A stretch of 64,000 bases of DNA from an uncultured Myxococcales bacterium (GTDB lineage: Bacteria > Myxococcota > B64-G9), in NCBI GenBank assembly GCA_964640665.1, contig CAZXHT010000002.1, forward strand, positions 38,567 through 102,566, given 5' to 3'. The position numbers were made by a program, and so were the translations under genes. The notes beneath the pieces were generated by a model. It had not been told where the DNA came from. It did not search any database and saw only the letters and a program-made list of their open reading frames with translations. Shown here in pieces: positions 3,404 through 54,340 of this stretch (position 1 is its first letter; every line of letters starts with the position of its first letter).

Positions 3404-5101
3404 TTGGGAGTCATCGACTGGTCGATCGTCGGCGGCTATATGGCCGTATCACTGGCCATCGGGCTGATATTCGCCAAAAAGGCCGGACGTAGCCTGAAGG
3501 ATTACTTTCTGTCCGGGCGCAGCCTGCCGTGGTGGGTAGTGGGCGGTTCGATGGTGGCTACTACTTTCGCCGCCGACACGCCGCTGGCGGTGACCGAGTA
3601 CGTTCGCGGTGATGGTATCTGGCGGAACTGGTTCTGGTGGACGCTGGCAATCAATCATGTACTGGCGGCCGTCGTTTTCTCCAAACTCTGGCGAAGGGCC
3701 GAGGTGCTTACCGACAATGAACTGATCGAGTTGCGCTACCACGGAAAACCGGCCGCCGTCTTGAGGGCGCTGAAGGCATGCTACTTCTCGACCATATACA
3801 ATTTCATCGTCATGGGTTGGGTAACGGCGGCGATGTCGACCGTGCTGAGCGAGTTCATCGACATTCCAATAATCTGGGCGGTTGTTGCCTGTATGGCCGT
3901 CGCATCGATCTATTCGTTGATGAGCGGATTCTGGGGTGTGGTGGTGACCGACCTCTTCCAGTTCGGCATGGCGATGATAGGCTCGGTGATATTCGCCGTG
4001 TTGGCCGCGAAAGCCGCGGGCGGCATGGATGCGATGTTGGCGAAGATAACGGAAATGGGCGCAGGATCGAAGCTGACATTCTTTCCCTCAATGAATTCGG
4101 GGCCCGAGGTGTGGGGAAAGTTCCTTGTGTTCGTCCTGGTCATGTGGTGGTCGACTCATAACGCTGACGGCGGGGGATACTTAATTCAGCGCATGATGGC
4201 GGCAAAGAACGAAAAACAAGCTCAGGCGGGAACGTTCTTTTTCGCCTTAATGCATTATATAGTCAGGGTCTGGCCATGGGTAGTAGTTGCCCTGGCATCG
4301 ATAGTCCTGCTTCCGGAAACGGTAGCCGGCAGGCAGGCCTATCCGCAACTGATGGCGAAAATTCTGCCGGTCGGCTTGAAGGGGGTTTTCGTCGCGGTGT
4401 TCCTGGCCGCTTACATGTCGACGATCGATACGCACCTTAACTGGGGATCGTCATACATCGTGAACGATATCTACAAGAGATTCATAAAGCCAAAGGCCGG
4501 GCCAAAACACTACGTGGCGGTATCCAAAATAGTGTCACTGGTCTTGATGATAGTTGCAGGTTTCGTGGCGCTCAGAATACACAGCATCACTTCGGCCTGG
4601 GAACTCGTCTGGGCCATGGGAGCAGGCGTGGGGGCGGTCTTGATCCTCAGGTGGTTCTGGTGGAGGATAAACGCCTACAGCGAGATCTCGGCCATGGCCA
4701 CATCCCTGGTCATCGCCATGGGCATGCAACTCTGGGAATTGACAACGGGTGAGAGCCTGGCACTGCATATAAAGGCGCTGGTTGTAGTTCTGGGATCGAT
4801 TGCAGTCTGGTTGCCTGTCACCTTGCTCACGAGGCCGGAGCCCGAGAAGGTGCTGAAAAGCTTCTGCGAACGGGTGAAGCCGGGAGGCAGATGGCCTTTC
4901 GAGGTTGCCGGCCGTGGTTATGGGCGGAGTATGATCGTAGCCTGGATAGGAGGGGTGGGTATCATATACGGCGGCATGTTCACTATTGGTGCGTTGGTGC
5001 TGAGACAGACCGATAGCCTGAGTTGGAGCATCCCGCTGGTTACGTCGGGCGGAGCGCTGGTGTGGCTGGGAATGAGAAAAATATTGCGTCAGGGTCAATA
5101 G
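3404..5101 (+). CDS. Sodium:solute symporter family (SSF) transporter
   Basis: 565 aa polytopic membrane protein, N-terminal GRSLPWWVVGGSMVATTFAADT motif typical of SSF/PutP/SglT-like carriers. Confidence 0.8.
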   Translation: MGVIDWSIVGGYMAVSLAIGLIFAKKAGRSLKDYFLSGRSLPWWVVGGSMVATTFAADTPLAVTEYVRGDGIWRNWFWWTLAINHVLAAVVFSKLWRRAEVLTDNELIELRYHGKPAAVLRALKACYFSTIYNFIVMGWVTAAMSTVLSEFIDIPIIWAVVACMAVASIYSLMSGFWGVVVTDLFQFGMAMIGSVIFAVLAAKAAGGMDAMLAKITEMGAGSKLTFFPSMNSGPEVWGKFLVFVLVMWWSTHNADGGGYLIQRMMAAKNEKQAQAGTFFFALMHYIVRVWPWVVVALASIVLLPETVAGRQAYPQLMAKILPVGLKGVFVAVFLAAYMSTIDTHLNWGSSYIVNDIYKRFIKPKAGPKHYVAVSKIVSLVLMIVAGFVALRIHSITSAWELVWAMGAGVGAVLILRWFWWRINAYSEISAMATSLVIAMGMQLWELTTGESLALHIKALVVVLGSIAVWLPVTLLTRPEPEKVLKSFCERVKPGGRWPFEVAGRGYGRSMIVAWIGGVGIIYGGMFTIGALVLRQTDSLSWSIPLVTSGGALVWLGMRKILRQGQ

Positions 5102-6261
5102 GCTGAGCGGAAAACTTTCTCTCCTGCAACATAGCTTTCCAGAACACGTAGATCGGATGGATCGAGAACAATCAGGTCGGCGTGCTTGCCGACGGCGATA
5201 CTGCCAAGCCGTTCGGAGATGCCCAGAACGCTGGCCGGTACGAGCGAGGCGCAACGAACGGCGGTAGGGATGTCGAGGTGGCAGAGATCGACGGCGTTCC
5301 TGACTGCGTCGGCCATTGTCAAGACACTCCCTGCGAGCAGGCCGCTCGCAGTCCGTGCTACGCCTGCGACCAGAGAGATTGGTGTGTCGCCCATGGAGCA
5401 GTTGTCTTCGGAGCAACCAAGAAGCGATGTTGCCGATGTGACGAGAGCGACGCGATCGGCACCAAGGGCACGGAAGGCCAACTTTGCGGCGCTGGGATGG
5501 ACATGAGAATCGCACAGGACGATCTCCGCGACGGCTTCGTCCGAAGTAAGAACAGCGCCCGCGGCGTTGGGATCGCGGTGGTGAAATGGCTTCATGCCGT
5601 TGAAGAGGTGGGTAACCAGTCGGCAACCGCGCCGTATTGCGTGTTCGGCCTGCTCGCAGGTTGAACTCGTGTGGCCGATAGCGGGTACTATACCCGCCCT
5701 GGAAAGCCAATCGACGAGGGAATCTGAACCGGGCAACTCCGGTGCGATGGTTACAATCCTCAACCAACCGGCCGCGGCGTTTGCGAAATCGGCGAGCAGG
5801 CCAAGATCGGGCTCGCGCAGAAAGTCGATGCCGTGGACACCGCAGCGGGACGGACTGATAAATGGTCCAATGAGGTAGGAGCCAAGCAGGCGGGTAGATC
5901 CATCGCCGGAAGAGGCAAGCGAGGAGATTGACGACAGGCAGCGCTTTGTTGTTTCGGGATCCGCAGGATAAAGAGCCAGGCACATGGACGTGGTGCCGTA
6001 AGCGGCATGAGTCTTCAGAATGGTATCGAGGCTTCCTGTCTCGGCAATGGTAGAGTCGACACCGCCGCCGCCATGGACGTGAAGATCGACGTATCCGGGC
6101 GCCAGCAGGAAACCACCCAGATCAATATCCTTGGAATTATGAGCGGGCATGCCGGAAGTCTCACCGATCCAGGCTATGACGCCGTTACGCACATCTACCG
6201 CACCGTCCCGAAGGATCTCGCGCTCGAGCACGACGGAACAATGTGTAAAGACGCAATCCAA
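5095..6261 (-). CDS. nagA: N-acetylglucosamine-6-phosphate deacetylase-like amidohydrolase
   Basis: PGYVDLHVHGGGGVD metal-binding motif and THLFNGM motif as in NagA; 388 aa. Confidence 0.75.
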   Translation of the reverse strand: MDCVFTHCSVVLEREILRDGAVDVRNGVIAWIGETSGMPAHNSKDIDLGGFLLAPGYVDLHVHGGGGVDSTIAETGSLDTILKTHAAYGTTSMCLALYPADPETTKRCLSSISSLASSGDGSTRLLGSYLIGPFISPSRCGVHGIDFLREPDLGLLADFANAAAGWLRIVTIAPELPGSDSLVDWLSRAGIVPAIGHTSSTCEQAEHAIRRGCRLVTHLFNGMKPFHHRDPNAAGAVLTSDEAVAEIVLCDSHVHPSAAKLAFRALGADRVALVTSATSLLGCSEDNCSMGDTPISLVAGVARTASGLLAGSVLTMADAVRNAVDLCHLDIPTAVRCASLVPASVLGISERLGSIAVGKHADLIVLDPSDLRVLESYVAGEKVFRSAY

Positions 6262-36914: not shown

Positions 36915-38192
36915 ATGTGTCAACGACCTCGATTTGACCCGGGATGGGGTATTGGCTATGTTTTCGCCAGGGAGCGTAGCCATATCGTGGATGAGCGGCA
37001 ACCAGGACCAGAGCGCGGCGGCGGGGTGTTTACTCCGATCGAGATCGGTCCGCTCAAGCTTCGCAATCGGGTGATCAAGGCGGCAACCTTCGAGGGTATG
37101 ACTCCGGGAGGTTTACCGTCGGATGATCTAGTCGAACACCATCGGCGGGTGGCGGCCGGGGGCGCCGGCATGACCACCGTGGCATATTGCTCCGTATCGC
37201 CCGAGGGTTTAACGTTTCCCGACCAGATGCACATGCGCCCGGAGATCGTGCCCGGCCTTAGCAGGCTTACGGCGGCTGTTCATCACGAGGGCGCCACGGC
37301 CGCCCTGCAACTGGGGCACGCCGGTTACTTCGCCTCGCGTAAGGCCGCCGGCTGTCGTCCGGTCGGGGCGTCGCGGGTACTCAATCTGTATACTCTGACC
37401 CGCCCGCGAGTCATGAACCCGGCCGACATGGAGAGAATTCGCGACGATTTCGCCAAGGCCACGACGTTGGCCGCCGAGGCAGGGTTCGACGCCGTCGAGG
37501 TCCACCTTGGCCACGGCTACCTTCTGAGCCAGTTCCTGTCTCCCTACACCAACCGGCGCCGTGACATGTTCGGCGGGGATATCGAGGCGCGCCTGCGCTT
37601 TCCGATCGAGGTTGTCAAGGCCGTCCGTGGGGCCGCCGGCAGCAAGATGGCGGTGCTGGTCAAGGCCAACCTCGAAGACGGGTTCAAAGGCGGGTTGGGG
37701 ATCGAAGAAGCGATTGAAGTGGCCCGGGCGCTCGAAGCGAACGCCGTTGACGCAATCGTGCTCAGCGGCGGGTTCGTCAGCCGGACACCCTTTTACATGC
37801 TGCGCGGCGACCTGCCGGTGGCCGAGATGGTTCGCAACGAGAAGAAGAGACTGCGCCGAATCGGCCTCAGGCTTTTCGGACGAATCTTCGTCAAGGTCTA
37901 TCCTTTCGAGGAAATGTTCTTCTTCGAACAGGCGCAGAAGGTGCGCCGGGCTGTGAAGGTTCCTCTGTGTCTGCTCGGCGGAATACGTTCGTTGGCCAAC
38001 ATCGAAAAGGCCATGAGCGCCGGTTTCGATCTGATCTCGATGGGCCGCCCGCTGATTCTAGATCCGGACCTGGTTTTGCACATGAAGGCCGGGAAGTGCG
38101 ACGCCTCGGTCTGCGAGCCCTGCAACCTGTGCGTGGCGCGCATGGAGGCCGGAGGAATAATCTGCGCCCATCCGCGCCTGGGCGCCTCGTGA
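36915..38192 (+). CDS. NADH:flavin oxidoreductase (Old Yellow Enzyme family)
   Basis: FTPIEIGPLKLRNRVIKAA...GAGMTTVAY OYE N-terminal motifs; true start probably GTG near 37026 (ORF track start 36915 uncertain). Confidence 0.8.
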   Translation: MCQRPRFDPGWGIGYVFARERSHIVDERQPGPERGGGVFTPIEIGPLKLRNRVIKAATFEGMTPGGLPSDDLVEHHRRVAAGGAGMTTVAYCSVSPEGLTFPDQMHMRPEIVPGLSRLTAAVHHEGATAALQLGHAGYFASRKAAGCRPVGASRVLNLYTLTRPRVMNPADMERIRDDFAKATTLAAEAGFDAVEVHLGHGYLLSQFLSPYTNRRRDMFGGDIEARLRFPIEVVKAVRGAAGSKMAVLVKANLEDGFKGGLGIEEAIEVARALEANAVDAIVLSGGFVSRTPFYMLRGDLPVAEMVRNEKKRLRRIGLRLFGRIFVKVYPFEEMFFFEQAQKVRRAVKVPLCLLGGIRSLANIEKAMSAGFDLISMGRPLILDPDLVLHMKAGKCDASVCEPCNLCVARMEAGGIICAHPRLGAS

Positions 38193-38298
38193 AGCTTCTA
38201 CCTCTGGAATACGCTGACTCCAGCCTTGCGGGCGGAGTTCGGCTTCTCGTCGGGGATGGTCCAGGCAAAGGCCAAAGAGCAGTCGAGCACCAATTTCA

Positions 38299-38553
38299 TC
38301 AGAAGCGGCGTCCTTCATCAATCAACTTACTAATACTCAGGCCGGGTCCCACCCTTTTCCTGATCTCGCGGAACTTTTCCAGGATTTCGGCGAAGTCCGG
38401 TTCATGGTCATCTTCATTATAAGGAACCAGGCGGGCCACGACCTTGCCGCGACGGCGGATGACGAAGGAACGTCCCTTCTCGGTTTCGCGGAGAAGCTCG
38501 GCCAGGCGGGTCTTGGCTTCGAAGGAACCAATTTCATCTTCATGGACAACCAA
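38299..38553 (-). CDS. Phd/YefM-family type II antitoxin (orphan, C-terminally extended)
   Basis: N-terminal IGSFEAKTRLAELLRETEKGRSFVIRRRGKVVARLVP matches Phd/YefM fold consensus; no cognate toxin ORF adjacent. Confidence 0.6.
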   Translation of the reverse strand: MVVHEDEIGSFEAKTRLAELLRETEKGRSFVIRRRGKVVARLVPYNEDDHEPDFAEILEKFREIRKRVGPGLSISKLIDEGRRF

Positions 38554-38781: not shown

Positions 38782-39426
38782 TTGACACCTCATGGGCTGG
38801 TATTCACGATGAACGACACGCAGATTCGGGAAGGCCTCCATAAAAAATTACTGAAGAGGCATCATATTTGTAAGGATACACTCGTTGTCAACGAGTTGGG
38901 CCTGAGACATGGTACTAACCGGGCTGACATTGTTGTAATAAATGGGAACCTTGTCGGATACGAGATCAAGAGTGACAAAGACTCATTGCACCGACTCAAA
39001 GAACAAGTACCCGCGTATACCTCGGTTTTTGACTGGTCTTCGGTGGTGGTTGGCACTCGACACAAGACGGTGATTGAATCGTTGGTGCCTGACAACTGGG
39101 GAGTAATAGTGTCATACCAAGGTCCCAGAGGCGGTGTCCACTTTGAAACGCTACGTGTGGCTCGCAGGAACCAAGCAGTGGATCCTTTCGCGATTGCACA
39201 ACTACTCTGGCGAGATGAAGCCGTGGCTATCCTTGCGGAGAAAGATGTGCCAGCGCGAGTACTGCGACAGTGCCGTTCTGTGCTCTACAAGCATCTCGTG
39301 GAAATGCTCAGTCTATCGGAATTGCAGAGTCGGGTCAGGGCTTTCCTGAAGAACCGTAGAAACTGGCGACATCCCGCACAACCTTTTCAAGATGGTGGTT
39401 TGTGCCGACCCACCGCCAAGTTGTAA
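38782..39426 (+). CDS. PD-(D/E)xK-type nuclease-fold protein (MmcB/sce7726-like)
   Basis: Core RADIVVINGNLVGYEIKSDKDS gives D...E-x-K arrangement typical of restriction-endonuclease-like fold; 214 aa. Confidence 0.5.
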   Translation: MTPHGLVFTMNDTQIREGLHKKLLKRHHICKDTLVVNELGLRHGTNRADIVVINGNLVGYEIKSDKDSLHRLKEQVPAYTSVFDWSSVVVGTRHKTVIESLVPDNWGVIVSYQGPRGGVHFETLRVARRNQAVDPFAIAQLLWRDEAVAILAEKDVPARVLRQCRSVLYKHLVEMLSLSELQSRVRAFLKNRRNWRHPAQPFQDGGLCRPTAKL

Positions 39427-40453
39427 GGTTGCCCGTTGTTTCAGTGCCGCCTGCGCAGCCTTTAATGTACTCGTCCCCTTTTGAGAAACTGTCCCCACAG
39501 TAGCCTTGTGAATCCATGACTGTTCGGCAATGGCCTTTGTACTGCCCGAATTTATGGTCTCGGACATTCGGTCCTTTGACCACAAACCAGGCATCATCGA
39601 TTGCGTACCTGATGCTTGCCGATGGCTTCACCTTTCGCATGTCCACCAACAGAACCTGCGGGTGGCTGATTGTATAGTCTCCAAAGGTGGGGATTCGAGA
39701 ACTACCAAGCCTGCTGGCTACTTTCTTGTAAAGAAGCCATTCATAGCGTTCAATAACTGAAGGACTATGCTTCACTTCTGCCATTGACTGTGGAAACGAG
39801 GCACCTAGAAGGATGAATGTTCTCCACTTCTTCAGGTATGGTATTCGTTCGATGATCGCTTGCACGAGTTTGCTGAAGCCTTCAAGAGGGAGGAAATTGG
39901 GTGACCCCAAGTCGAGGACGAGGTCACACTCATTTGCCCTCATCTCCATGAGCTTCAATAACTTATTGAGGTTGACCTCAAGGCTTGATCTGTTGGCTAG
40001 TTCAATTCCTATACGTAGACAGAGACCTTTTTTATCCTTGCTGATAGCACGCTTGACTGAACTCTGGTAGCGATGATCTCTCTCCAGCCCAGTTACAGGT
40101 ACCGCATGACATTTCTCAGCTCGGAGTTCATTGAAAACATAGTCGACCGGGTGCCTTCGGCTCTTCATCATTGTCTTCGAATCCAACAGATTGAGATCTA
40201 CAAAGCAAGGCTGTTGTCCCCACTTTGTACTGACTCGCTTGGCGAAGGGTTCCAGGTGCTCATCGACTGTCCTCTTGTCAGACTGTGCCTCAAAATCGAA
40301 ACCGATTTCCGGAACCTCTATGAACGGAGTAAGTGAACGCTTTGCTGACTTGGATAGCCGCAGCACGGCCTGATACTCCCCCTGTTTCCATCGGAGGCAC
40401 GGAACATAATGTTCATGGTCGAATCTCATCGTAAACCTCCTTTCACTGTCCAA
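39335..40453 (-). CDS. Uncharacterised 372-aa protein (last gene of HTH/ImmA operon), C-terminal Cys cluster
   Basis: Long ORF with 11-bp overlap with upstream XRE/ImmA gene; C-terminal HCx9CGDx9C pattern; no recognisable catalytic motif. Confidence 0.5.
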   Translation of the reverse strand: MDSERRFTMRFDHEHYVPCLRWKQGEYQAVLRLSKSAKRSLTPFIEVPEIGFDFEAQSDKRTVDEHLEPFAKRVSTKWGQQPCFVDLNLLDSKTMMKSRRHPVDYVFNELRAEKCHAVPVTGLERDHRYQSSVKRAISKDKKGLCLRIGIELANRSSLEVNLNKLLKLMEMRANECDLVLDLGSPNFLPLEGFSKLVQAIIERIPYLKKWRTFILLGASFPQSMAEVKHSPSVIERYEWLLYKKVASRLGSSRIPTFGDYTISHPQVLLVDMRKVKPSASIRYAIDDAWFVVKGPNVRDHKFGQYKGHCRTVMDSQGYCGDSFSKGDEYIKGCAGGTETTGNLTTWRWVGTNHHLEKVVRDVASFYGSSGKP

Positions 40454-41735
40454 ATCGGACCTCGGTGAATTGCTTCCTCACCTCGCCTAGTCCCACCATG
40501 TCTTTGAGGATTACGTAATTGTTCGCCTCTTTTCTTATCCTCCCTGCGATGATAGCGGTGCCTATCTTGAGCTTAATCGCTGCTTCCCTGATGGCCTCCT
40601 CGGTTCTAACATATCGAGCCAGAGCTGTTTCCCACATGTCATCAGGGATAAGCATATTCCCAGCGAAGTCATTGGCCTCCCGCTCCACGTCATCACCCTC
40701 TATGTCGAGGTCATCGAAGATGTCTTCAATCTTCCCTTTGCGTAGATGCTTGACCACATGGGCCAACTCGTGAAAAAGGACAAACCAAAAATTATCAAGT
40801 CTATCATACCGCAACGTCATACCGATAACTGGGTGTCCGTCTCTAAGAAGAAAAGTAGCTCCATCCAGATATGTCCTTGGAAGATGAGGTTCAAAAACAA
40901 GAGAGATGCCAGATTTTGCCAAGTACTCCTTGGCCAATTGTGGCCCATTAGTTTGTTGACTCATCTGCGCCAGCTCACGAAACCACCTAACTGACAGTCC
41001 CTTGCGTTCAAAATCGCCTACGTCTTTCTCCATGCCAGAGAGCAGGAGAATCCGACATTGCCAAGCGATGAGAGCATAGGTGTCCATATTTCTGCCCATA
41101 CGGGCTCGCTGTCGGAGAAGGGCTGGCTGTCGCAAGGGCATTGCCTTCTCGATGAAATCCTTCACAAGTTCATCTGCACATGACATGGCCGTCGACAGTG
41201 AGCCTTTGAAGTCCTCAAACCAGTTCCGACGATACATTTCTTTTACTGGGAACAAACTCCAATCCAGTTCTTTGGGATCGCCTTTGTATGCCCTGGTAGG
41301 AGTCCCAACAATTTCGGCAACTTCACTGATGTTTAGGTTAAGGGTCCTCGCCACTTGTGTGATCCTCTGCAAGCTTGCTGAGGAATAATATTCAGCCTCA
41401 TACCTTTGGACTTGCTGCTCCTTCACGCCGAGCATTTCAGCCAGTTCTCGTTGGGATAGACCCTTGGCAATCCTCGCTTGGATGAGTACCGTTGGCATTT
41501 GTTCTAGAGACGCCGCACTTAATACCGTGATCGCACCGGATTCCAGTGCTTCATATTCACGAATTTGATCGGAGAGGCTCAAGACTTCACTTTCCAATGC
41601 GCTAAATTCGGCCTTTGCTAGAACTGCTGAACCCGTGCGTTGTGCAGCTTCCTTGATGTCAAAGGCCTCTACCGCATCTTTGAGTTTCCGATACTGAGCC
41701 CTTGTTATTCTATACTGCCGGTCATTAGTAATCAT
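40443..41735 (-). CDS. XRE-family HTH domain fused to ImmA/IrrE-family zinc metallopeptidase
   Basis: HTH_XRE (IAKGLSQRELAEMLGVKEQQVQRYE) at aa ~95-150; HEXXH (FHELAHVV) plus EREANDFAGNMLIP downstream, diagnostic of COG2856 ImmA/IrrE. Confidence 0.8.
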   Translation of the reverse strand: MITNDRQYRITRAQYRKLKDAVEAFDIKEAAQRTGSAVLAKAEFSALESEVLSLSDQIREYEALESGAITVLSAASLEQMPTVLIQARIAKGLSQRELAEMLGVKEQQVQRYEAEYYSSASLQRITQVARTLNLNISEVAEIVGTPTRAYKGDPKELDWSLFPVKEMYRRNWFEDFKGSLSTAMSCADELVKDFIEKAMPLRQPALLRQRARMGRNMDTYALIAWQCRILLLSGMEKDVGDFERKGLSVRWFRELAQMSQQTNGPQLAKEYLAKSGISLVFEPHLPRTYLDGATFLLRDGHPVIGMTLRYDRLDNFWFVLFHELAHVVKHLRKGKIEDIFDDLDIEGDDVEREANDFAGNMLIPDDMWETALARYVRTEEAIREAAIKLKIGTAIIAGRIRKEANNYVILKDMVGLGEVRKQFTEVRFGQ

Positions 41736-41749
41736 TCAGTCCTCCATCC

Positions 41750-42229
41750 TCACATGAGTCGGACACGGACAATGCCTTTCTGCTTGCCCGTGTGCCTGTC
41801 CTTCTGGAAATACTCCACGAAGGTTCTTCGTCCATTCGCAAATGCGCTCGATGGGAATAACTCACCCTCGAATTTGTCCTTCTGGTTTTTTCGGCTGTCG
41901 CTGAAATCTAGTAGGACCGGGTCTAACTTCTTGGCGTTGACACCTACGGGGTCCCAGCAGGCATCGTAATCACCCGGTTCCGGCTTCCCGGTAACAAAAC
42001 TTCCGTCGATGTAGACCGTTTTACACCCAGCTCTCTGAAGGGCCTCTATACTTGCTTTCAATCCTGTAAAAAGCATTTGGCGTCGTGGCGTCGTGGCAAA
42101 TACCTTCTTAACCTCATCAAGTGTTGCATCGTGTACCCCAGGAGGCAGGACCGGCCAAGGACTCTTGATGTCAACCAGCTCAGGAATCATGACACAATTA
42201 TATTGTTGTGTTGATAAATGATCCAGCAA
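41750..42229 (-). CDS. Putative minimal nucleotidyltransferase (pol-beta superfamily)-like protein
   Basis: IDGSFVTGKPEPGDYD fits hG[GS]x9-13DhD NTase motif; 159 aa; first gene of operon, 14 bp upstream of XRE/ImmA gene. Confidence 0.4.
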   Translation of the reverse strand: MLDHLSTQQYNCVMIPELVDIKSPWPVLPPGVHDATLDEVKKVFATTPRRQMLFTGLKASIEALQRAGCKTVYIDGSFVTGKPEPGDYDACWDPVGVNAKKLDPVLLDFSDSRKNQKDKFEGELFPSSAFANGRRTFVEYFQKDRHTGKQKGIVRVRLM

Positions 42230-42487: not shown

Positions 42488-44107
42488 TTACGTTGTCAAT
42501 CGCTTCAAATTGTCAACTGCTTGGACAACGAGCTCATCTGGAAAAGCGCCACGACTCAGCAATTCAATTGCATTTGTTGTCTTGCACAGTCCGGGTTTCA
42601 GGCGATAGTCGAAAAGGATGTCACTGCCCTGATAATGCTCTGAGAAATGGTACCTTTCAAAATTGTGATCAACCAACGTGCCAATCGCAAGGTCATGGGT
42701 GGCAACAATAACAAGGTTGCTCTTTGCCAAGTATTGGATGACTGCCGCAGCAGCCGCGACTCGCTCCACGGGATTTGTCCCCCTGAACAATTCGTCAACA
42801 ATGAAAAGGCAGTTGTTTCGGCTTGTGCTATACCCAACCAGTTTCTGGATGACATCAACCTCTACCGCAAACAAGCTCTTGCCGTTTTCAATGTCATCTG
42901 CAATGTCGATTGAAGTTTTAATGTAAAACAGACAGGCTTCGTACTTGCGTGCCACAGACGTATTGATGGTTTGAGCAAGAATCGCGTTCAATGCGACAGT
43001 TTTCAAAAACGTGGTCTTCCCGGACATATTGGAACCGGTAATCAACATGCTTGATCCATGGATTTCGAATGAATTGCCGATCGCCCGGTCTAGCCTCGGA
43101 TGAAGAAGGTTCTCGGCCTTGATCAGGCAAGGTGTATCGACAAATTCTGGTTTGCACCAGACGGGCTGGCTTCTGCGGTATGATGCAATTGAAATGCAGG
43201 CATCGATCAAGCCGATGGATCGAAAGAGAATGCGAAGATGCTTCTGGCTGTTTTCAATTTGTTCCCGGAGGGAGCCATAAGCGAGAACTTTTCTGAGTGT
43301 CAGGATGTTGAGATAGTCCAGCAGTTGTGTCGGATCTCTGAGCTGTATATACCTGCATTTTCTGGCGAGCGGGAGACACTGGTTGATGCTGGCGGAAAAT
43401 TCGACTTCGGAGGGAAAGTTTTTCCCGATAAGTTCGTGCAGATTTGCGCTCGATTGTATGAGTCTACCGAGACAGGAGAGGACATCGATTTCGTAGCCAA
43501 AAACCTCTTCGTACTTGTAGTGAACCATTAAGTTTATTAAAAACATCACAAGGGCGGCAGCCCAAAACAGAGGCTTGAAGACGGCCACAACAACGAACAC
43601 AATCAGGGCGATTGTACAAAGCCTGACCACTGTAATTGACAACGGAGGCTTGGGGAGGTTCTTCCAGATAAGCCTCGGTAGAGAAAATGAAGTATCATCG
43701 TCAAGGGAGAGAAGCTCAACTTGTGCTTTCTCGCGCAATTCAGCGTCGGTTTCAAACAACTCGACAAGTGGCTCCGGGACAGTTATCGCCTCTGAGTTGA
43801 GGCATGGCGTGACGAGAGTCTGATAGAGGTACTGCGATCCAGGGCTCGAGGTTGCGTGGTCGATAGATCCAAACACAAAATTGATATCAAGATCAGACCT
43901 TGTCCTACTGTCCAGCGAGAATCTGTTGAAGTCATCCGGGTTCTCTGAATCGATCTGTTCATAGAATTTGCACTTCTCGATTGGCCGCGGCGAACTCCGG
44001 CGATTTCCCCATTCCCGGCGCAGCCTCTTGAGTTGTTCCGCCTTTTTCGAAAAGATGCAGATTCGAGAGAGAACCGATCTGAAATGAGCCGCCGCGTTGG
44101 TGAGCAT
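42488..44107 (-). CDS. Membrane-anchored MutS-domain-V-like ABC ATPase
   Basis: Walker A ITGSNMSGKTTFLK, Walker B LFIVDELFRGTN, VIVATHD; two predicted TM helices (aa ~165-215); no mismatch-binding N-domain. Confidence 0.7.
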   Translation of the reverse strand: MLTNAAAHFRSVLSRICIFSKKAEQLKRLRREWGNRRSSPRPIEKCKFYEQIDSENPDDFNRFSLDSRTRSDLDINFVFGSIDHATSSPGSQYLYQTLVTPCLNSEAITVPEPLVELFETDAELREKAQVELLSLDDDTSFSLPRLIWKNLPKPPLSITVVRLCTIALIVFVVVAVFKPLFWAAALVMFLINLMVHYKYEEVFGYEIDVLSCLGRLIQSSANLHELIGKNFPSEVEFSASINQCLPLARKCRYIQLRDPTQLLDYLNILTLRKVLAYGSLREQIENSQKHLRILFRSIGLIDACISIASYRRSQPVWCKPEFVDTPCLIKAENLLHPRLDRAIGNSFEIHGSSMLITGSNMSGKTTFLKTVALNAILAQTINTSVARKYEACLFYIKTSIDIADDIENGKSLFAVEVDVIQKLVGYSTSRNNCLFIVDELFRGTNPVERVAAAAAVIQYLAKSNLVIVATHDLAIGTLVDHNFERYHFSEHYQGSDILFDYRLKPGLCKTTNAIELLSRGAFPDELVVQAVDNLKRLTT

Positions 44108-47670: not shown

Positions 47671-47818
47671 GTTTCCTCCTTCGTAAGAGACACCATCATG
47701 TAGCCCAAAGAGCCGATCATTGCAAGAGCGGGAGCCGTCCAAAATTTTCCAAGCGAAAATCACGCTTGGCCTAAATCTTTTCTTTTTAACCCCGCCGATT
47801 GGTGATAAGCTCTCGGAC

Positions 47819-50800
47819 ATGCTGCGAGGATGTGGGTGTTTACATCCGGTCCGATGGACCGGTTGCAGAACGTTACTGTTCTTGCACCTGGTGTCTTGCG
47901 CGAATCCGGTCTTGGCCGGGACGCGGGAGGCGGGGCCGCTTATCGATTTGCCCGGCAAATTGACTTCGGCGGCCATGGAGATCATCGACGGAGAACTCGA
48001 AGAACTTGGCAAGGATCCCGACTGGGATGCCCTGCACGCCTTCCTGGCCTCGCAGCCCGCTTCGCCCGTGGCCCGGTACGCGCGGGCCTCCGCTGATTTG
48101 AAACGCTGCGCCGTTTGGGACGGGGAACGCGGCCTCGAGACGCTCGCGGCCTTGCGCAAGGAAGCCGCCCAGCGGGGTGATCGGGTGCTGGCCGCACGGC
48201 TGCTTCTGGCCATCGGCCGCGGGCAACTCGCCCTGCGACACAACGCCCGGGCGCTGTCCTCCCTCGAGACCGCGGCAGCCGAGCTGCGCAGGTTGGGAGA
48301 TTCCCGGGGGCTGGTAGAGGCGCTTTTCCAACTCAGCAGCGGTCTGATCAACAATTCCCGCCGGCCGCGGGACGCCTTGAAATACATCAACGAGTTGCAG
48401 GTGCGGGCCGCGCGCCTCGACATGCGCGATTATGAACAGTTAGCCGCGCGTCTCTACGATGAATGGCGCAAGGGAATAGACGAAGTTGACGACTACTTCG
48501 GCCGGGCCCGTAACCGCTTGCAGTACTTCCCGCCGGCCCTCGGCATTTCCGAAGACGCGGACCTGGTGGCTTTTACTAACGGTGTGCTGGTCATGAACGG
48601 AGACACCGACGATCAGGTAGTGTCCGCCCGTCCCGAATTCGTGTCCTTCGACGGCCTGTTTACCCGCAAGTTGAAGCTGCCGGGCGACTCGCTGCAAATA
48701 CGCGGATCGCTGGTGGACGATCGCGGCCGGCTGTGGGCCGCAACCAACCGTGGCCTGTACCGCTACGACGGGGAGGGTTTCGTACACCTGTACAATCCCG
48801 CTCTTGCAGACGAGGAGGGCAACGATCTCGCAAGACAGGTAGCACGCGAGCGCGGCCGGATCTCGACTATGGAAGTTGCCTTATCTTCAAATATCGTAAA
48901 CGAGATAAAACAGGGCCCGGATGGTCGTTTCTATCTGGCAACAGCATCCGGGGCGTCTGTTTGTGATCGTGGCTTCAAGAAATTTCAGTATTTCACGCCG
49001 AAAAACGCTCCGCTGCCCGCGTCTGTCGAACGCATCGCCAAGGCTGCGGACGGATCGTTAGTGATTGCCTGGAGAGACGCCTACGCAGTGCGCCTGCCCG
49101 GGGGCGCCTGGAAAAGACGCGCCTTCGAGTTTCCCAAGGCCGCCGGCCGCCCGCACGGTAAGCTTTTTGGTCTTCTGGTCGACTCATCCGGGCACCCCTG
49201 GGTGCACGGTCTGGGGGGCGGACAGGAACTCTCCGGAACACGAGTTGTGCGCTATGTTGATCGACGCTTTTCGGCCATGACCCGCAACGTCAACCACGTG
49301 CTCAAGGCGAGTGATGGCGCCTATTGGTTCGCTTCAACCGATGGTCTCTGTCGCCAATCGGGTGCGCATTGCGACACGCTCAACGCCGGCCGCTGGATGC
49401 CGGCCGAGTGGTCGCTGGATCTGTTCGAGGGGCCGCCAGGAAACGTGTGGGTTTCTGTCTACCAGGGGGGGCTGATTCGCATCATGCCTCCCAACTACCG
49501 GCACTACGGGCTTGCCGAGGGTTTTCGCCAGCCGGTCAACGAAACAATCCGCGAACTTGCGGGTTACCTGTATTTCACAAACGGAGAGGGGTTGACGCGA
49601 CTGGATCCCGCCAGCGGCCGCATAGACAACTTCGCCTCCGAGGCAGAGGGCATACCCTTAGGAGAGCTGAAGATATCGGAGAAGTTGAGTGATGGGCGGC
49701 TGGCCCTGGCCGGTCCGGACATACTGGCGCAAAAGGCGATCGTCCTCTTCGATGGGCGGCATGGCCGCCTGGTGGACGAACACAATGGATTGCCGGCCGA
49801 AAGCCTGATCTCCTTTTGCCAGGACGAGGCCGGCAAGCTCGAGGTCGCCTACGGCACGGGTTTGTGGCAACTCGACCTGCAGACGCTGCGTGCTCGGCCG
49901 GACCCCGACTGGCGAGCGATCGAGGGCATACAGATTGTGGATCTTGCCTGCGCCGCCGACGGATCCGCCTGGGTGTTGACCCCTGATGCCGTCTATCGAC
50001 GGGATAGCAACGGCGTGCGACACATCGATCTCGGGGGTATTGGTTTGCACGGCAAGCCGCGCCAACTGATTGCGTCGGTGCGGGCCGGGGTCTTCGTTTT
50101 CGGACAGCGCCAGATATTGAACCGCCGAAATGACGCCTGGAAACAGATACCGGTCGATGCCGACAAATTCGACTTCCGCGTCCGCGACGTGGTCGAAGAC
50201 GATCGCGGCCTGCTCTACTTCGCCACCGAAAGCGGCGTTTTCGCCTTCAACGGTGAGAACTGGACCCGCCTGAGCGCGCGTGACGGATTGGTTTCCAGGA
50301 CAGCTTTCCAAATGTTGGCGCGCGGGGACGGGTTGTGGATATCCGGAGACGGAGGCGTCACTTGCTGGAACTGGCCTGAACAGCAACCGCCGGAGACGTT
50401 TCTGTTGTTCAGAGGCGATGCTTTCTTCGCCGATCCCGACGGGAGAGCGCTTCGCTTCCGGGCTTCAAACGGAATAGAAAAGGAAGGTTGGGTGCAGCTA
50501 CGCGGGACGGCCGGCCTGTTCGAGCTGCCCGAAAAGCAGGCCGGCTCGTTTTTAACGCCTGCCAGACGAACGGGTCTCCTGTTGACTGATAACGCAGGTG
50601 CAGGCGATTCGACGGCCTCCGGGATGAAGGTAGTAAGGTCGAACAGGCTTGAGTTTTTCGCTTCGGCCGGTGTGCCTTTCATGGACGATACACCCGATGA
50701 GTTCTCGTACCACTACCGGGTCGACGCGGGTGCCTGGTTTCCCGCCCGGGGAAGGAAGATTGTTGTCGGCGACCTGAAAGATGGAGTGCACCGGGTGGAG

Positions 50801-53800
50801 ATCCGCGCCACGGATCCACGCCTGGTTTCGGATCCCACACCGGCTCGATGGTCCTTCATGGTCGAGACGCCGATGTCCCCCTGGCTGCCGGCCGCCTTCG
50901 GTCTTTCGGCCGGCTTGCTTTTGTTCTTTGCGCGCCGACGCTGGATGTGGTTGCTGCAACGCTTGATGCACAGGCACTTCCATCCTCTCGACCCGGCATC
51001 ATTCGCCCCGCAGCGGCCGGCCAGCGGGCCCGATTTCATTGGTCGTGGGGAGCAGTTGGAAACTCTTTTGCGCGTGGCCGCGGATACCGGGGGGGTGGCC
51101 GTGGCATGGGGGGAGAGAGGAACAGGAAAACACTCGTTCATGCTGCGGCTCGCCGCGCAGCTGCGCCAGCGACACGTACATGTCGTCGAGATGGATCTGG
51201 CCGTTACGACTGCCGGCGGCGACGTCGCCAACCTGGTTGGCAGCCTGGGCCGCACCTTGCTGGACGTTTTAGAGTCAGACGGAGTTCGGATCGATTTGGC
51301 GCCGGCCATGGCAGGGGAATCGCTGTTATCCTTGCCGGGCAGCCTTGGCGGGGAGTCACCCGCCAAGGACATGCCGTCTCCACCCGGATCGTCGGCCTCG
51401 GGTGATAATCCGTTTGAGGTATTGAGTCGGACATTGCGGCATCTTGATCAGCAGGCGCCGGGTGAACGAGTGGCCTTCCTGATTGACAATGCCGAGGTGC
51501 TCGGCGTGGCCCTCGATTCGGACGCCGGCTATGGCTCTTACTTGTTTCCCTTTATGCGCTCGCTGGTTCAGGAACGTTCCTGTGTAACCATGGTGCTGGC
51601 CATCGAGGGCCGCTGGTTCAACCTTTCGCGGATTTACAGGCAGCTGTTTGCCTTCGCATCTCCGCTGGCCATCGATCGTCTCTCGCGGGAAGAAAGCAGC
51701 CGCCTGCTTACGGGCAGGCTCAAGAATCAGGCAATCGTATCCGAGCGGGATCTCGGGCGGCTTGTGGATCTGGCCGGCGGACATCCTTTCTTGCTGCAGC
51801 AAATTGGCAAACATCTGGTTGATGAAATGAACCGCCGGCGGACCAACGTGTGCTCGGGCAAGCTCGTCAAGGGGATATCGACCGTCCTGGTCGATGAAGT
51901 CGACAGCCAGCTGCAACGGATGTTTTTCGATCTTTCGCGCGAGGAAAAACTCGTGGTGACGGCCTTGTGCACAGGCGACCGTCGCGCAAGCAAGCTGGAC
52001 ACGATTGCGGCCCGTCTCGCGGAGGCCGGCGGCAAGTTGCTGTACGAGGAAATCCGCCGGGCCGTTTTGTCGCTCGCCAAGGACGGCACGCTCTTGAAAG
52101 ACGAGGATTACTTCTCCCTGCAAGGTGACCTGTATCGCAGCTGGGTGCATGCGCACCACTCTTTAGCCTCTGTGTTGGAGGAGTCGCATGACTACGTGGG
52201 CCACTACCAGCTCGTCGAAAAGCTGGGCTCCGGCGGCATGGGAGTAGTTTACAAGGCACGCAATCTGGTAACCGGTGCCACGGTGGCACTCAAACTGCTG
52301 CGGGCCGAGCTGTCGGAAAAGAAGCGTTCCCGGCGCCGTTTTCTGCGCGAAGCCAGACTGGGAAAGAGCATTCGGCACCCCAATATAGTGCGCATTCTCG
52401 ATTACGGAGAGCAGGCCGGACGACTTTACCTGGCCATGGAGTTCGTGGACGGCAAGACCTTGACCCTCTGGACTCGCAAGGCCGGCGGCCTGTCGGCACA
52501 GACAGTGTTGGAAATAGGCCGCCACCTGTTGTCGGCGCTGGTTGCCGTCCACGAGGTGGGGATCGTGCACCGTGACGTGAAAAGCGACAATGTCATGGTG
52601 ATAAGCGCGAAGGGCAACTCTATAAAGTTGATGGACTTCGGCCTGGCGGTGGGCAAGGACGTCTCTCGCATGACCCGCGCCGGCTCGTTGCTGGGCACCG
52701 TCGCCTACATGTCGCCGGAGCAGGCGAGGGGCAAGGTGGTTGACGCCCGTTCGGATCTCTATTCACTGGGGGTGGTACTGTATGAACTTTGTGCCGGCGC
52801 ACCGCCTTTTGCCGGCCCCGATGCCGCGGTGCTGCATTCTGTGATATACGATCTGCTCCCGCCGCTTGATGAGCGGGTTAAAAATATTCCTGCTGAGCTT
52901 TCGGCCTTCATCGGCAGGCTGCTCGCCAAGAATACCGACCAGCGTCCATCCAGTGCCCGCGAAGCTCTCGAGCAGCTCAACGGTCTAGCCGAACGACTTG
53001 GATCTTCCGGAGAAAACCTGTTCATGGGCGAGGCGGCGGCTGATGGCCGAACCGATCGGGGCACGACAAGTGGCATTACATCCGGGACAGAAGTGACCTC
53101 ACACGCACTGGAAACGCTCAAGTCACAGAGCATCTTGTTGTCTTCGCTGTCGACGGCCACAAAGGAATCTATCTCCTCGCTGGCGGACGCCACCCACGAT
53201 GCCGCCCGGCTGTTGCTATATCGCATCTCGGCCGATGTGGCTCGTGGCTCGATCGAAGGCGGCGTCTTGAGAGATTGCCTCGAACAGGTTTGCGACACGC
53301 TCGAGGCGAACCGCGGCCTGGTGGCCCTGGGGAGCGATGATGGAAAGTTCGAATGTGTAGCGTCCTTCAACCGTGATGTAGAACAGATTGAGAAGCTTCC
53401 GGTCTTGTTCTCATTGTTTCACCAGTGTGTAGGCAAGCAGAGCGGTCTCCTGTACACGGCCCCGCATGGTTCTGTCGAGGATGGAATGGGCACCGCCGTT
53501 TTCGCACCGCTCTGGGCCGCGGACAAGATCCTTGGCGCTTTCATGGTTGAACGTAGCGGAGCCGAGGCGCGTCCATTCGATTTTCATAGCCTGGAGTTGA
53601 TGGCAGGCGTCGGCTACCTGTTGGGACTCGGACTGGAACGCGAGAGGCTGTACAAACAGGTGCTGAATCAGGAACGCCTGGCCGCGGTGGGACACATGCT
53701 GGCCGGGGTGGCGCATGATATGCGTTCTCCAATGGCTGTCATTTCCGGCTACGCAGAGTTAATTACGTTTGAAAAAGACTCTTCCAATCGGGAGAAGAAC

Positions 53801-54340
53801 TGCGCCGTTATCGTGCGCCAGGTGGGAGAGATGAACCACATGATCGGCAATCTGCTGGCTTACGTTCGCGGGGACACGCAACTCAATCCCGCCCAAATCC
53901 GGGCAGAAGAACTCGCCGTGGAGATCGAGGAAACCTTCCGGCCGCAATGCGAGCCGCGGGGCATCGAGTTGAACATCAGCGCCGGGGAGGGGCCGGCGCG
54001 GGTCGATGTCTCCCGAACCAAGCGCATCATCTACAACCTGGGCAAAAACGCCGTGGAGGCCCTCGGTGAATCCGGCAAATTGGAGATACGCCTTGAGAGC
54101 CGGGACAACGGACTCGAAATCAGGATCCGCGACAACGGGCCTGGAATCCCAACCGAGGTGCGTGAGCATATGTTCGACCCGTTCTTTACAAGCGGCAAGA
54201 AAGGAGGAACCGGTCTTGGCCTGGCGATCGTGAGTCGCTTCATACACGACCAGGCCGGGTCGATATCCACACACTGTGGGGAAGGTGGCGGCACGACCAT
54301 GATTGTCCACATCCCCGATGTAACCAGCCGTAAAAGCTAA
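47819..54340 (+). CDS. Multidomain sensor kinase: TPR-like + beta-propeller/Y_Y_Y - TM - P-loop ATPase - Ser/Thr protein kinase - GAF - histidine kinase (HisKA+HATPase_c)
   Basis: Reg_prop/Y_Y_Y repeats (~48.7-50.86 kb), TM helix (~50.87-50.94 kb), Walker A GERGTGKHS (~51.11 kb), STK motifs GSGGMGVVYKA / HRDVKSDN / DFGLA / SPE (~52.2-53.0 kb), GAF (~53.2-53.65 kb), H-box AHDMRSP and G2 box GTGLGLAIV (~53.7-54.3 kb); start set at ATG 47819 (track start 47720 is upstream extension). Confidence 0.85.
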   Translation: MLRGCGCLHPVRWTGCRTLLFLHLVSCANPVLAGTREAGPLIDLPGKLTSAAMEIIDGELEELGKDPDWDALHAFLASQPASPVARYARASADLKRCAVWDGERGLETLAALRKEAAQRGDRVLAARLLLAIGRGQLALRHNARALSSLETAAAELRRLGDSRGLVEALFQLSSGLINNSRRPRDALKYINELQVRAARLDMRDYEQLAARLYDEWRKGIDEVDDYFGRARNRLQYFPPALGISEDADLVAFTNGVLVMNGDTDDQVVSARPEFVSFDGLFTRKLKLPGDSLQIRGSLVDDRGRLWAATNRGLYRYDGEGFVHLYNPALADEEGNDLARQVARERGRISTMEVALSSNIVNEIKQGPDGRFYLATASGASVCDRGFKKFQYFTPKNAPLPASVERIAKAADGSLVIAWRDAYAVRLPGGAWKRRAFEFPKAAGRPHGKLFGLLVDSSGHPWVHGLGGGQELSGTRVVRYVDRRFSAMTRNVNHVLKASDGAYWFASTDGLCRQSGAHCDTLNAGRWMPAEWSLDLFEGPPGNVWVSVYQGGLIRIMPPNYRHYGLAEGFRQPVNETIRELAGYLYFTNGEGLTRLDPASGRIDNFASEAEGIPLGELKISEKLSDGRLALAGPDILAQKAIVLFDGRHGRLVDEHNGLPAESLISFCQDEAGKLEVAYGTGLWQLDLQTLRARPDPDWRAIEGIQIVDLACAADGSAWVLTPDAVYRRDSNGVRHIDLGGIGLHGKPRQLIASVRAGVFVFGQRQILNRRNDAWKQIPVDADKFDFRVRDVVEDDRGLLYFATESGVFAFNGENWTRLSARDGLVSRTAFQMLARGDGLWISGDGGVTCWNWPEQQPPETFLLFRGDAFFADPDGRALRFRASNGIEKEGWVQLRGTAGLFELPEKQAGSFLTPARRTGLLLTDNAGAGDSTASGMKVVRSNRLEFFASAGVPFMDDTPDEFSYHYRVDAGAWFPARGRKIVVGDLKDGVHRVEIRATDPRLVSDPTPARWSFMVETPMSPWLPAAFGLSAGLLLFFARRRWMWLLQRLMHRHFHPLDPASFAPQRPASGPDFIGRGEQLETLLRVAADTGGVAVAWGERGTGKHSFMLRLAAQLRQRHVHVVEMDLAVTTAGGDVANLVGSLGRTLLDVLESDGVRIDLAPAMAGESLLSLPGSLGGESPAKDMPSPPGSSASGDNPFEVLSRTLRHLDQQAPGERVAFLIDNAEVLGVALDSDAGYGSYLFPFMRSLVQERSCVTMVLAIEGRWFNLSRIYRQLFAFASPLAIDRLSREESSRLLTGRLKNQAIVSERDLGRLVDLAGGHPFLLQQIGKHLVDEMNRRRTNVCSGKLVKGISTVLVDEVDSQLQRMFFDLSREEKLVVTALCTGDRRASKLDTIAARLAEAGGKLLYEEIRRAVLSLAKDGTLLKDEDYFSLQGDLYRSWVHAHHSLASVLEESHDYVGHYQLVEKLGSGGMGVVYKARNLVTGATVALKLLRAELSEKKRSRRRFLREARLGKSIRHPNIVRILDYGEQAGRLYLAMEFVDGKTLTLWTRKAGGLSAQTVLEIGRHLLSALVAVHEVGIVHRDVKSDNVMVISAKGNSIKLMDFGLAVGKDVSRMTRAGSLLGTVAYMSPEQARGKVVDARSDLYSLGVVLYELCAGAPPFAGPDAAVLHSVIYDLLPPLDERVKNIPAELSAFIGRLLAKNTDQRPSSAREALEQLNGLAERLGSSGENLFMGEAAADGRTDRGTTSGITSGTEVTSHALETLKSQSILLSSLSTATKESISSLADATHDAARLLLYRISADVARGSIEGGVLRDCLEQVCDTLEANRGLVALGSDDGKFECVASFNRDVEQIEKLPVLFSLFHQCVGKQSGLLYTAPHGSVEDGMGTAVFAPLWAADKILGAFMVERSGAEARPFDFHSLELMAGVGYLLGLGLERERLYKQVLNQERLAAVGHMLAGVAHDMRSPMAVISGYAELITFEKDSSNREKNCAVIVRQVGEMNHMIGNLLAYVRGDTQLNPAQIRAEELAVEIEETFRPQCEPRGIELNISAGEGPARVDVSRTKRIIYNLGKNAVEALGESGKLEIRLESRDNGLEIRIRDNGPGIPTEVREHMFDPFFTSGKKGGTGLGLAIVSRFIHDQAGSISTHCGEGGGTTMIVHIPDVTSRKS

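Follow-up and report, generated by a model that had tools for sequence, protein, structure and literature searches.

A cluster of four genes was analysed in a 64-kb stretch of DNA (64,000 nucleotides, referred to as the window) from an uncultured Myxococcales bacterium. An earlier note on this DNA, made from the letters alone, had described three minus-strand genes in a low-GC island as a candidate novel defence or abortive-infection module. The three open reading frames (ORFs) were found where that note had placed them, at 41750..42229, 40443..41735 and 39335..40453 of the minus strand. The unit, however, comprises four genes and not three, as the convergent gene at 38809..39426 of the plus strand always belongs to it. 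Moreover, rather than founding a new class, the cassette looks like a recombinant related to two validated anti-phage systems, PD-λ-2 and the gop-β-cII system of P4. The features of the cassette are as follows (aa, amino acids).

41750..42190, minus strand: gene 1, DUF6932 minimal nucleotidyltransferase (NTase)-fold protein of 146 aa (longest ORF to 42229)
40443..41735, minus strand: gene 2, 430-aa protein with an Xre helix-turn-helix (HTH) and an M78 (ImmA/IrrE) Zn-peptidase, homologue of PD-λ-2_B
39335..40429, minus strand: gene 3, 364-aa P4 β-family protein (longest ORF to 40453)
38809..39426, plus strand: gene 4, 205-aa P4 cII/sce7726-family PD-(D/E)xK protein, convergent with gene 3
42192..42211, minus strand: operator, a dyad around the -10 hexamer upstream of gene 1
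39335..39426, both strands: 92-nt overlap of the β and cII ORFs at their 3' ends

The start of gene 1 is most likely the ATG at 42190 (146 aa) rather than the TTG at 42229, because its homologues are about 146 aa long and begin with M-I-P, and because the conserved promoter and operator stop 1 nt before that ATG. For gene 3, the most likely start is the ATG at 40429 (364 aa), which lies 13 nt past the stop codon of gene 2, since the sequence AAGGAGG is found six nt upstream of it and homologues begin there. The 11-bp overlap of genes 2 and 3 that had been noted is therefore probably a longest-ORF artefact. The proposed tight coupling itself was retained, as was the 14-bp gap between genes 1 and 2, which holds a GGAGG Shine-Dalgarno sequence behind which gene 2 starts at 41735. 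The GC content was found to be 0.43-0.53 in the island between 38.5 and 44.1 kb compared to about 0.57-0.66 on either side, in agreement with the GC drop noticed before, and this low GC relative to the host suggests recent acquisition of the cassette. A tRNA, an integrase and convincing flanking direct repeats were looked for at the island borders, and none were found.

When one genome per GTDB species was scanned with an alignment of β and the translated ORFs were searched locally, 52 non-redundant related loci were recovered from more than 10 phyla, among them Sumerlaeota, Planctomycetota, Desulfobacterota, Verrucomicrobiota, Chloroflexota, Actinomycetota, Acidobacteriota, Fibrobacterota and Spirochaetota, as well as from plasmids of Rhizobiaceae and Acinetobacter and from one viral contig. 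The order DUF6932, Xre-M78, β and convergent cII was kept in 38 of the 52 loci, and DUF6932 was present in 38 of the 42 with upstream sequence. A convergent cII gene was found in every locus that had an intact β gene and a downstream flank (49/49). In all 49, the β and cII ORFs overlapped at their 3' ends, by 32-119 nt with a median of 80 nt, compared to 92 nt in the window. No conserved neighbours beyond the four genes were found among the loci examined. The copy on a conjugative plasmid of Sinorhizobium is annotated as 'hypothetical / XRE family / beta family / sce7726 family', and the copy on the viral contig, from IMG/VR, lies beside an S49 prohead-type protease. The cassette is also carried by NDM-1 plasmids of Acinetobacter. 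In one of these (L057, Acinetobacter pittii pNDM-AP_882), β is cut at 5232-5432 by an IS30-family element of Tn125, the carrier of blaNDM-1. As the Tn125 element truncates β in the NDM-1 plasmids, the cassette is inactivated there.

Genes 2 and 3 connect the cassette to PD-λ-2. Gene 2 was matched by Pfam HTH_3 (1.6e-11) and Peptidase_M78 (2.8e-12), so that the fusion of an Xre HTH to an ImmA-type M78 peptidase previously suggested for it was confirmed, and by PADLOC PD-Lambda-2_B with an E-value of 4.6e-93 over profile positions 71-398 of 402. The protein consists of an N-terminal segment of about 80 aa, read as a putative coiled-coil-like region, the Xre HTH (aa ~85-138), a conserved middle domain and the M78 domain with HELAH at 322-326 and E351. 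It had been predicted that the HEXXH and glutamate residues of ImmA would fall at catalytic positions, and this was the case: H322, E323 and H326 of HELAH together with E351 were kept at at least 95% in a local alignment of 43 sequences and were invariant in an alignment of 8 more distant homologues. Gene 2 further gave weak, partial PADLOC matches to RmrA (about 1e-12 to 6e-12 or weaker) and a match to capP (4.7e-09). Searches of the PDB with the gene 2 profile returned generic HTH proteins only, plus a weak match of the M78 segment (query 314-367, E 1.4e-3) to 9vzy, an HTH protein of 393 aa without a name. The C-terminal 272 aa of gene 2 gave no match by phmmer.

Gene 3, in which the earlier note had recognised no motif, was found to be a member of the P4 β family. 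It matched Pfam Beta_protein PF14350 (1.9e-88) and PADLOC PD-Lambda-2_C (2.4e-57), and it shares 25% identity with P4 β over its full length. A TIM barrel is predicted for its fold, and D181 and D259 (372-aa numbering) are among its invariant residues. The C-terminal Cys cluster previously pointed out is present in the window sequence and is not a feature of the family: C333 (372-aa numbering) is the one invariant Cys in a 33-member subfamily alignment, and all of the C-terminal Cys residues are absent from P4 β. The cluster was therefore ruled out as a Zn site. A function like that of TGT/DpdA (tRNA/DNA-guanine transglycosylase) was also considered for gene 3 and rejected, as this similarity was unspecific in the fold search with β. 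The combination of a TIM barrel, a C-terminal Zn subdomain of the CxCxxC…H type and specific TGT similarity was not found. When the profiles of genes 1, 3 and 4 were compared to the PDB by sequence, nothing meaningful was obtained, and literature searches on PF14350 and on DUF6932 found no papers.

Gene 4, which begins with an ATG at 38809, connects the cassette to P4. It matched the NCBIfam family sce7726_fam (NF033832) at 2.4e-47, above the 70-bit cut-off, and the PADLOC model 'cll' at 6e-30, and an identical gene at JGI carries the precomputed Pfam assignment Phage_P4_cII. The PD-(D/E)xK motif consists of E38, D49 and E61-I-K63 (214-aa ORF numbering), and its E…D…E-x-K residues are invariant, P4 cII included. 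The suggested resemblance of gene 3 and the convergent PD-(D/E)xK gene to a pair of the sce7725/sce7726 type was thus right for the convergent gene. It did not hold for gene 3, which had no NCBIfam match at E<=0.1 and hence is not of the sce7725 family. It may be conjectured that cII acts as an effector of the cassette.

Gene 1 was assigned to Pfam DUF6932 (E 8e-36), a family that comprises, at 50% identity and E<=1e-3, about 2,900 clusters; most of the members listed have ~140-160 aa. The sole PADLOC match was the candidate PDC-M63A (1e-14), and neither HigB_toxin (Pfam) nor PD-Lambda-2_A (PADLOC) matched at E<=0.1. The residues G63-S64, D74-x-D76, E110 and K138 are invariant among 33 homologues. 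In an AlphaFold2 (AF2) model with a pLDDT of 94, GS directly follows a β-strand, DxD enters the next strand and E110 lies on a third strand, and the closest structural matches were antitoxins of the minimal-NTase (MNT) fold. The hG[GS]-x9-13-DxD core after the first strand and the third carboxylate on the next strand, as in MNT-like members of the Pol-β superfamily, are both present. The NTase likeness proposed from the letters was therefore borne out in fold and in motif, including the expected catalytic positions of GS…DxD, with the correction that the spacing is GS-x9-DxD, invariant in the 33 homologues, and not GS-x10-DxD. These findings show that gene 1 is a minimal NTase fold with an invariant GS…DxD…E that occupies the position of PD-λ-2 A. 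The fold and the GSx9DxD motif are shared with the MNT antitoxins of HEPN-MNT (type VII) systems. None of the four proteins was found to have a HEPN domain, and the conserved neighbourhood holds none either.

In nearly all loci, gene 1 is preceded by the consensus TTGAC(A/T)-N9-10-AACACAAC-N6-GTTGTGT(T/C), followed by 0-4 nt and the start codon, in which the -10 hexamer sits in the spacer and right arm of a dyad. In the window, the dyad reads ACACAAC-N6-(A/G)TTGTGT on the minus strand, the -10 hexamer TATAAT lies at 42197-42202, and the dyad ends 1 nt before the ATG of gene 1. The dyad was found with at most one mismatch at 0-4 nt before the start codon in 30 of 32 loci, and 28 loci show TTGA[CT] as the -35. 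The exact pattern was unique in the 64-kb window, compared to 0 expected in shuffles, and occurred a single time per locus in 29 loci. Paired changes of the arms were found in L005 (ACCCAA/TTGGGT) and in the Sinorhizobium plasmid locus L056 (CTTACAAC/GTTGTAAG), and such complementary variation of both arms is what an operator dyad would be expected to show. The statement that no repressor target is present was thus overturned: a conserved dyad operator and the -10 of the promoter overlap. Because the promoter and the dyad abut the start codon, a leaderless and autoregulated operon is predicted, with the HTH of gene 2 as the putative autoregulator. In two loci, the dyad is displaced from gene 1, by about 1.3 kb in L054 (2938-2957, with gene 1 at 4270) and by about 100 nt in L015 (4119-4138), which points to insertions that separate the promoter from the operon. 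Ahead of cII, a shared operator was looked for and not found; the region upstream of cII is conserved within clades only, and the dyad is single per locus.

The PD-λ-2 system of E. coli ECOR42 consists of a HigB-like A, an Xre-peptidase B and a P4-β-like C; the toxicity of B on its own is relieved by A, and C is required for defence against λvir, which occurs by abortive infection (Vassallo et al. 2022, PMC9519451). The window cassette has the same A-B-C order and tight coupling, its B is likewise an Xre HTH with an M78 peptidase and its C is P4 β-like. In contrast, the A gene of PD-λ-2 encodes a HigB-like protein of the RNase (RelE) fold compared to the DUF6932 NTase found here, and the convergent cII gene is an obligatory fourth gene here and absent from HigB-type loci with flank. 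A further difference lies in gene 2, whose first ~130 aa (extension and HTH) could not be aligned with the HigA-like N-terminus of a HigB-type B. The 39% identity with the B of a HigB-type locus was confined to aa 130-429. The HigB type (HigB_toxin-like, Xre-M78, β) is carried by viral contigs, and HigB_toxin was detected in the first gene of the sister loci L068, L069 and L064. Many other viral loci, as well as L063, L064 and L073, have HigB and Xre-M78 followed by non-β genes, in L064 a Schlafen/AlbA_2-domain protein, so the Xre-M78 core may pair with several alternative downstream effectors. In two variants from Verrucomicrobiota (L037, 4094-5053; L039, 4068-4912), B has 304 aa and no HTH. 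Their first position is taken by a ribbon-helix-helix (RHH, CopG-type) protein and a 208-aa protein that is GNAT-like by eye with no Pfam match. The N-terminus of B therefore co-varies with the type of A: it is HigA-like with HigB, a different stretch of ~130 aa with DUF6932, and devoid of an HTH with RHH and the 208-aa protein. It follows that the first gene is exchanged along with the N-terminal part of B, with the B core and β retained, and cII too in the DUF6932 lineage. This shows that the first gene is an exchangeable module.

The gop-β-cII system of P4 protects against λ and P1 and is toxin-antitoxin (TA)-like (Rousset et al. 2022, PMC9122126), and a phage accessory gene acts as its trigger (bioRxiv 10.1101/2023.04.06.535777). 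In P4 (NC_001609), gop and β are followed by cII on the opposite strand, so that the order of β and convergent cII, their geometry and the PD-(D/E)xK motif are shared with the window cassette. The two differ in that a terminator separates β from cII in P4, with no overlap of the genes, whereas the window ORFs overlap by 92 nt, and in that DUF6932 and Xre-M78 precede β here in place of Gop. As the overlap is always kept in the cassette and the P4 genes are separated by a terminator, a coupling of β and cII by antisense or transcriptional interference is suggested. No Gop homologue was found by phmmer in any locus. Gop was also compared by hhalign to the profiles of genes 1 and 2 as a possible cryptic relative and was rejected at a probability of 0.1%. 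P4 satellite genes (integrase, cos, psu, sid) and tRNA were absent in and near the island, which thus does not resemble a P4 hotspot.

The locus is best explained as a self-contained, horizontally transferred four-gene anti-phage cassette of the TA-like abortive-infection type, sister to PD-λ-2 and to P4 gop-β-cII, to which a probability of about 0.65 was given. A role in defence or abortive infection, as the earlier note had proposed, is favoured over other readings, since clear homology links genes 2 and 3 to components B and C of PD-λ-2. From the observed homologies, motifs, synteny and conserved operator element, we infer a scheme that assigns a direction of toxicity, substrates to the protease and the NTase, a chemistry to β and a role to the nuclease. 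Transcription of the operon would start at a σ70-type promoter that has its -10 within the dyad and would give a leaderless mRNA, and the Xre HTH of gene 2 would bind the dyad and keep expression low. Gene 2 would be the switch. By analogy with PD-λ-2, in which B alone is toxic, the first gene product would restrain it. The MNT-like gene 1 could neutralise by attaching to the N-terminal region of gene 2 that is specific to this lineage, by nucleotidylylating a partner in the manner of MNT antitoxins, or by both. A phage cue would activate the M78 peptidase, which would cut the linker of its own HTH, or else a partner, and so derepress or unleash the downstream arm. This effector arm would be formed by the β TIM-barrel enzyme, which is needed in PD-λ-2, and the cII PD-(D/E)xK nuclease as the likely executioner, and the obligatory 3' overlap of β and cII would couple their expression by antisense or transcriptional interference.

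Several observations weigh against this explanation. Cassettes of the DUF6932 type are at present sequence predictions, and PDC-M63AB, a distant DUF6932 relative, gave no defence in one E. coli host. The neutralising behaviour of PD-λ-2 A may not transfer to gene 1, because the two are not homologous. The PD-λ-2 clone runs only ~396 bp past C, which is too short for a full cII, and neither of the two HigB-type loci that have a downstream flank carries cII. From these clone coordinates and the HigB-type viral loci, cII was taken to be absent from PD-λ-2 and is therefore dispensable for defence by that system. The fold search with β points to no specific enzyme family, and the -35 of the window is poor and degenerate (TGGATC). 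Of 105 flanking ORFs tabulated, ~10% matched defence models (such as CBASS, methyltransferases, MzaA and DrmD) and most were housekeeping genes, so that the association with defence islands is modest.

NTase toxins of the MenT/AbiEii type nucleotidylylate tRNA, and the main rival explanation, which is unlikely, is that the DUF6932 NTase is likewise the toxin and the HTH-M78 protein a hub antitoxin, as in RosmerTA (RmrT/RmrA), with β and cII as a separable P4-type module. HTH-ImmA proteins are validated 'hub' antitoxins for very diverse toxins, the toxin often being encoded first (PMC10440598), and Xre-COG2856 fusions classically lie downstream of RelE/HigB and PIN toxins (PMC2701414). As in RosmerTA and the wider Xre-COG2856 class, whose tested members are anti-phage, a gene for HTH and M78 lies just downstream of a small variable partner in the window cassette. 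Moreover, genes of toxin type fill the A slot in sister lineages (HigB, or RHH with the 208-aa protein). The matches of gene 2 to RmrA, of about 1e-12, fit this idea as far as they go; they are weak and partial, and four genes are conserved here compared to two in RosmerTA. If PD-λ-2 is taken as the guide, the toxin partner may be reversed between RosmerTA and the window cassette.

A more speculative form of the four-gene scheme is less probable again. In it, the NTase would covalently nucleotidylylate Xre-M78 or β/cII in a type VII-like manner and so silence it, the β enzyme would license cII, the overlap would act as an RNA interlock, and B and β would form an adaptor platform. If this were true, the swappable first gene (HigB, NTase, or RHH with the 208-aa protein) would mean that a B-β core links classical TA toxins to a nuclease effector. 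β would act on a nucleotide or nucleic acid, a phage cue would fire M78, and such a logic would be undescribed for any defence system.

It is improbable that the cassette serves mobile DNA as an addiction or stabilisation module, acting by post-segregational killing with no dedicated anti-phage role. Copies on large conjugative and on non-mobilizable plasmids would fit such a module, as would the TA-like architecture with an orphan Phd antitoxin gene adjoining and the window copy itself, an isolated low-GC insertion amid housekeeping genes. However, most copies are single chromosomal insertions that lack genes for replication or transfer, a viral contig holds one copy, and both experimentally studied relatives protect against phages.

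An M78 peptidase with an Xre HTH repressor forms a signal-gated switch in ImmR/ImmA-type systems (PMC2701414), an architecture that gene 2 shares with ImmR/ImmA of ICEBs1, IrrE/DdrO of Deinococcus and CapH/CapP of CBASS. In the window, it is one fused 430-aa protein with an extra middle domain. Unlike in ImmR/ImmA and CapH/CapP, no integrase or CBASS operon is controlled here, the sole detectable operator being that of its own promoter. A stress or DNA-damage switch that merely regulates its neighbours, for instance a repair nuclease, would account for the HTH, the M78 domain and the dyad operator, yet it is very improbable, as no neighbours past the four genes are conserved, the dyad is single per locus and confined to the cassette's own promoter, and genes 2 and 3 match a defence system at orthologue level.

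The cassette bears on two validated systems, PD-λ-2 and P4 gop-β-cII, that are both mechanistically unsolved and were hitherto treated as unrelated, since it physically joins the Xre-M78 and β of PD-λ-2 with the β and cII of P4. The view that the locus contains no known effector is superseded, the nuclease-fold gene cII being an obvious candidate. The accompanying view that the effector logic is undescribed holds narrowly, as the mechanism of the relatives is unsolved. Its spread over more than 10 bacterial phyla and onto clinically relevant plasmids provides a broader comparative frame for β-family systems. A detection rule for PD-λ-2 that demands a HigB-like A would probably miss cassettes of the DUF6932 type. 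Concrete handles on the action of β-family systems are offered by four catalytic motifs and a defined operator, together with a promoter predicted to be leaderless and the antisense overlap, which is conserved.

Other genes of the island and its surroundings were also inspected. A gene at 42488-44107 (minus strand), in the same low-GC island, encodes a protein of 539 aa that has the MutS domains III and V (ABC-type ATPase) and lacks a mismatch-binding domain. Its hydrophobic central segment resembles two transmembrane helices, and its best PADLOC E-value of about 5e-4 was not significant. It was rejected as a fifth component because it is not a conserved neighbour, a MutS-type gene being found near just one locus. 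At the left edge of the island, 38299-38553 (minus strand) encodes a Phd/YefM-family antitoxin that is not a conserved neighbour either. The ORF downstream of it (38058-38321) has no Pfam match and runs into the 3' end of a convergent flavin-oxidoreductase gene, so that the antitoxin appears to be orphaned or its toxin truncated. Further away and unrelated to the cassette, an ORF of 2206 aa at 47720-54340 (plus strand) has, by eye, a region like Ser/Thr protein kinases and a C-terminal region like histidine kinases.

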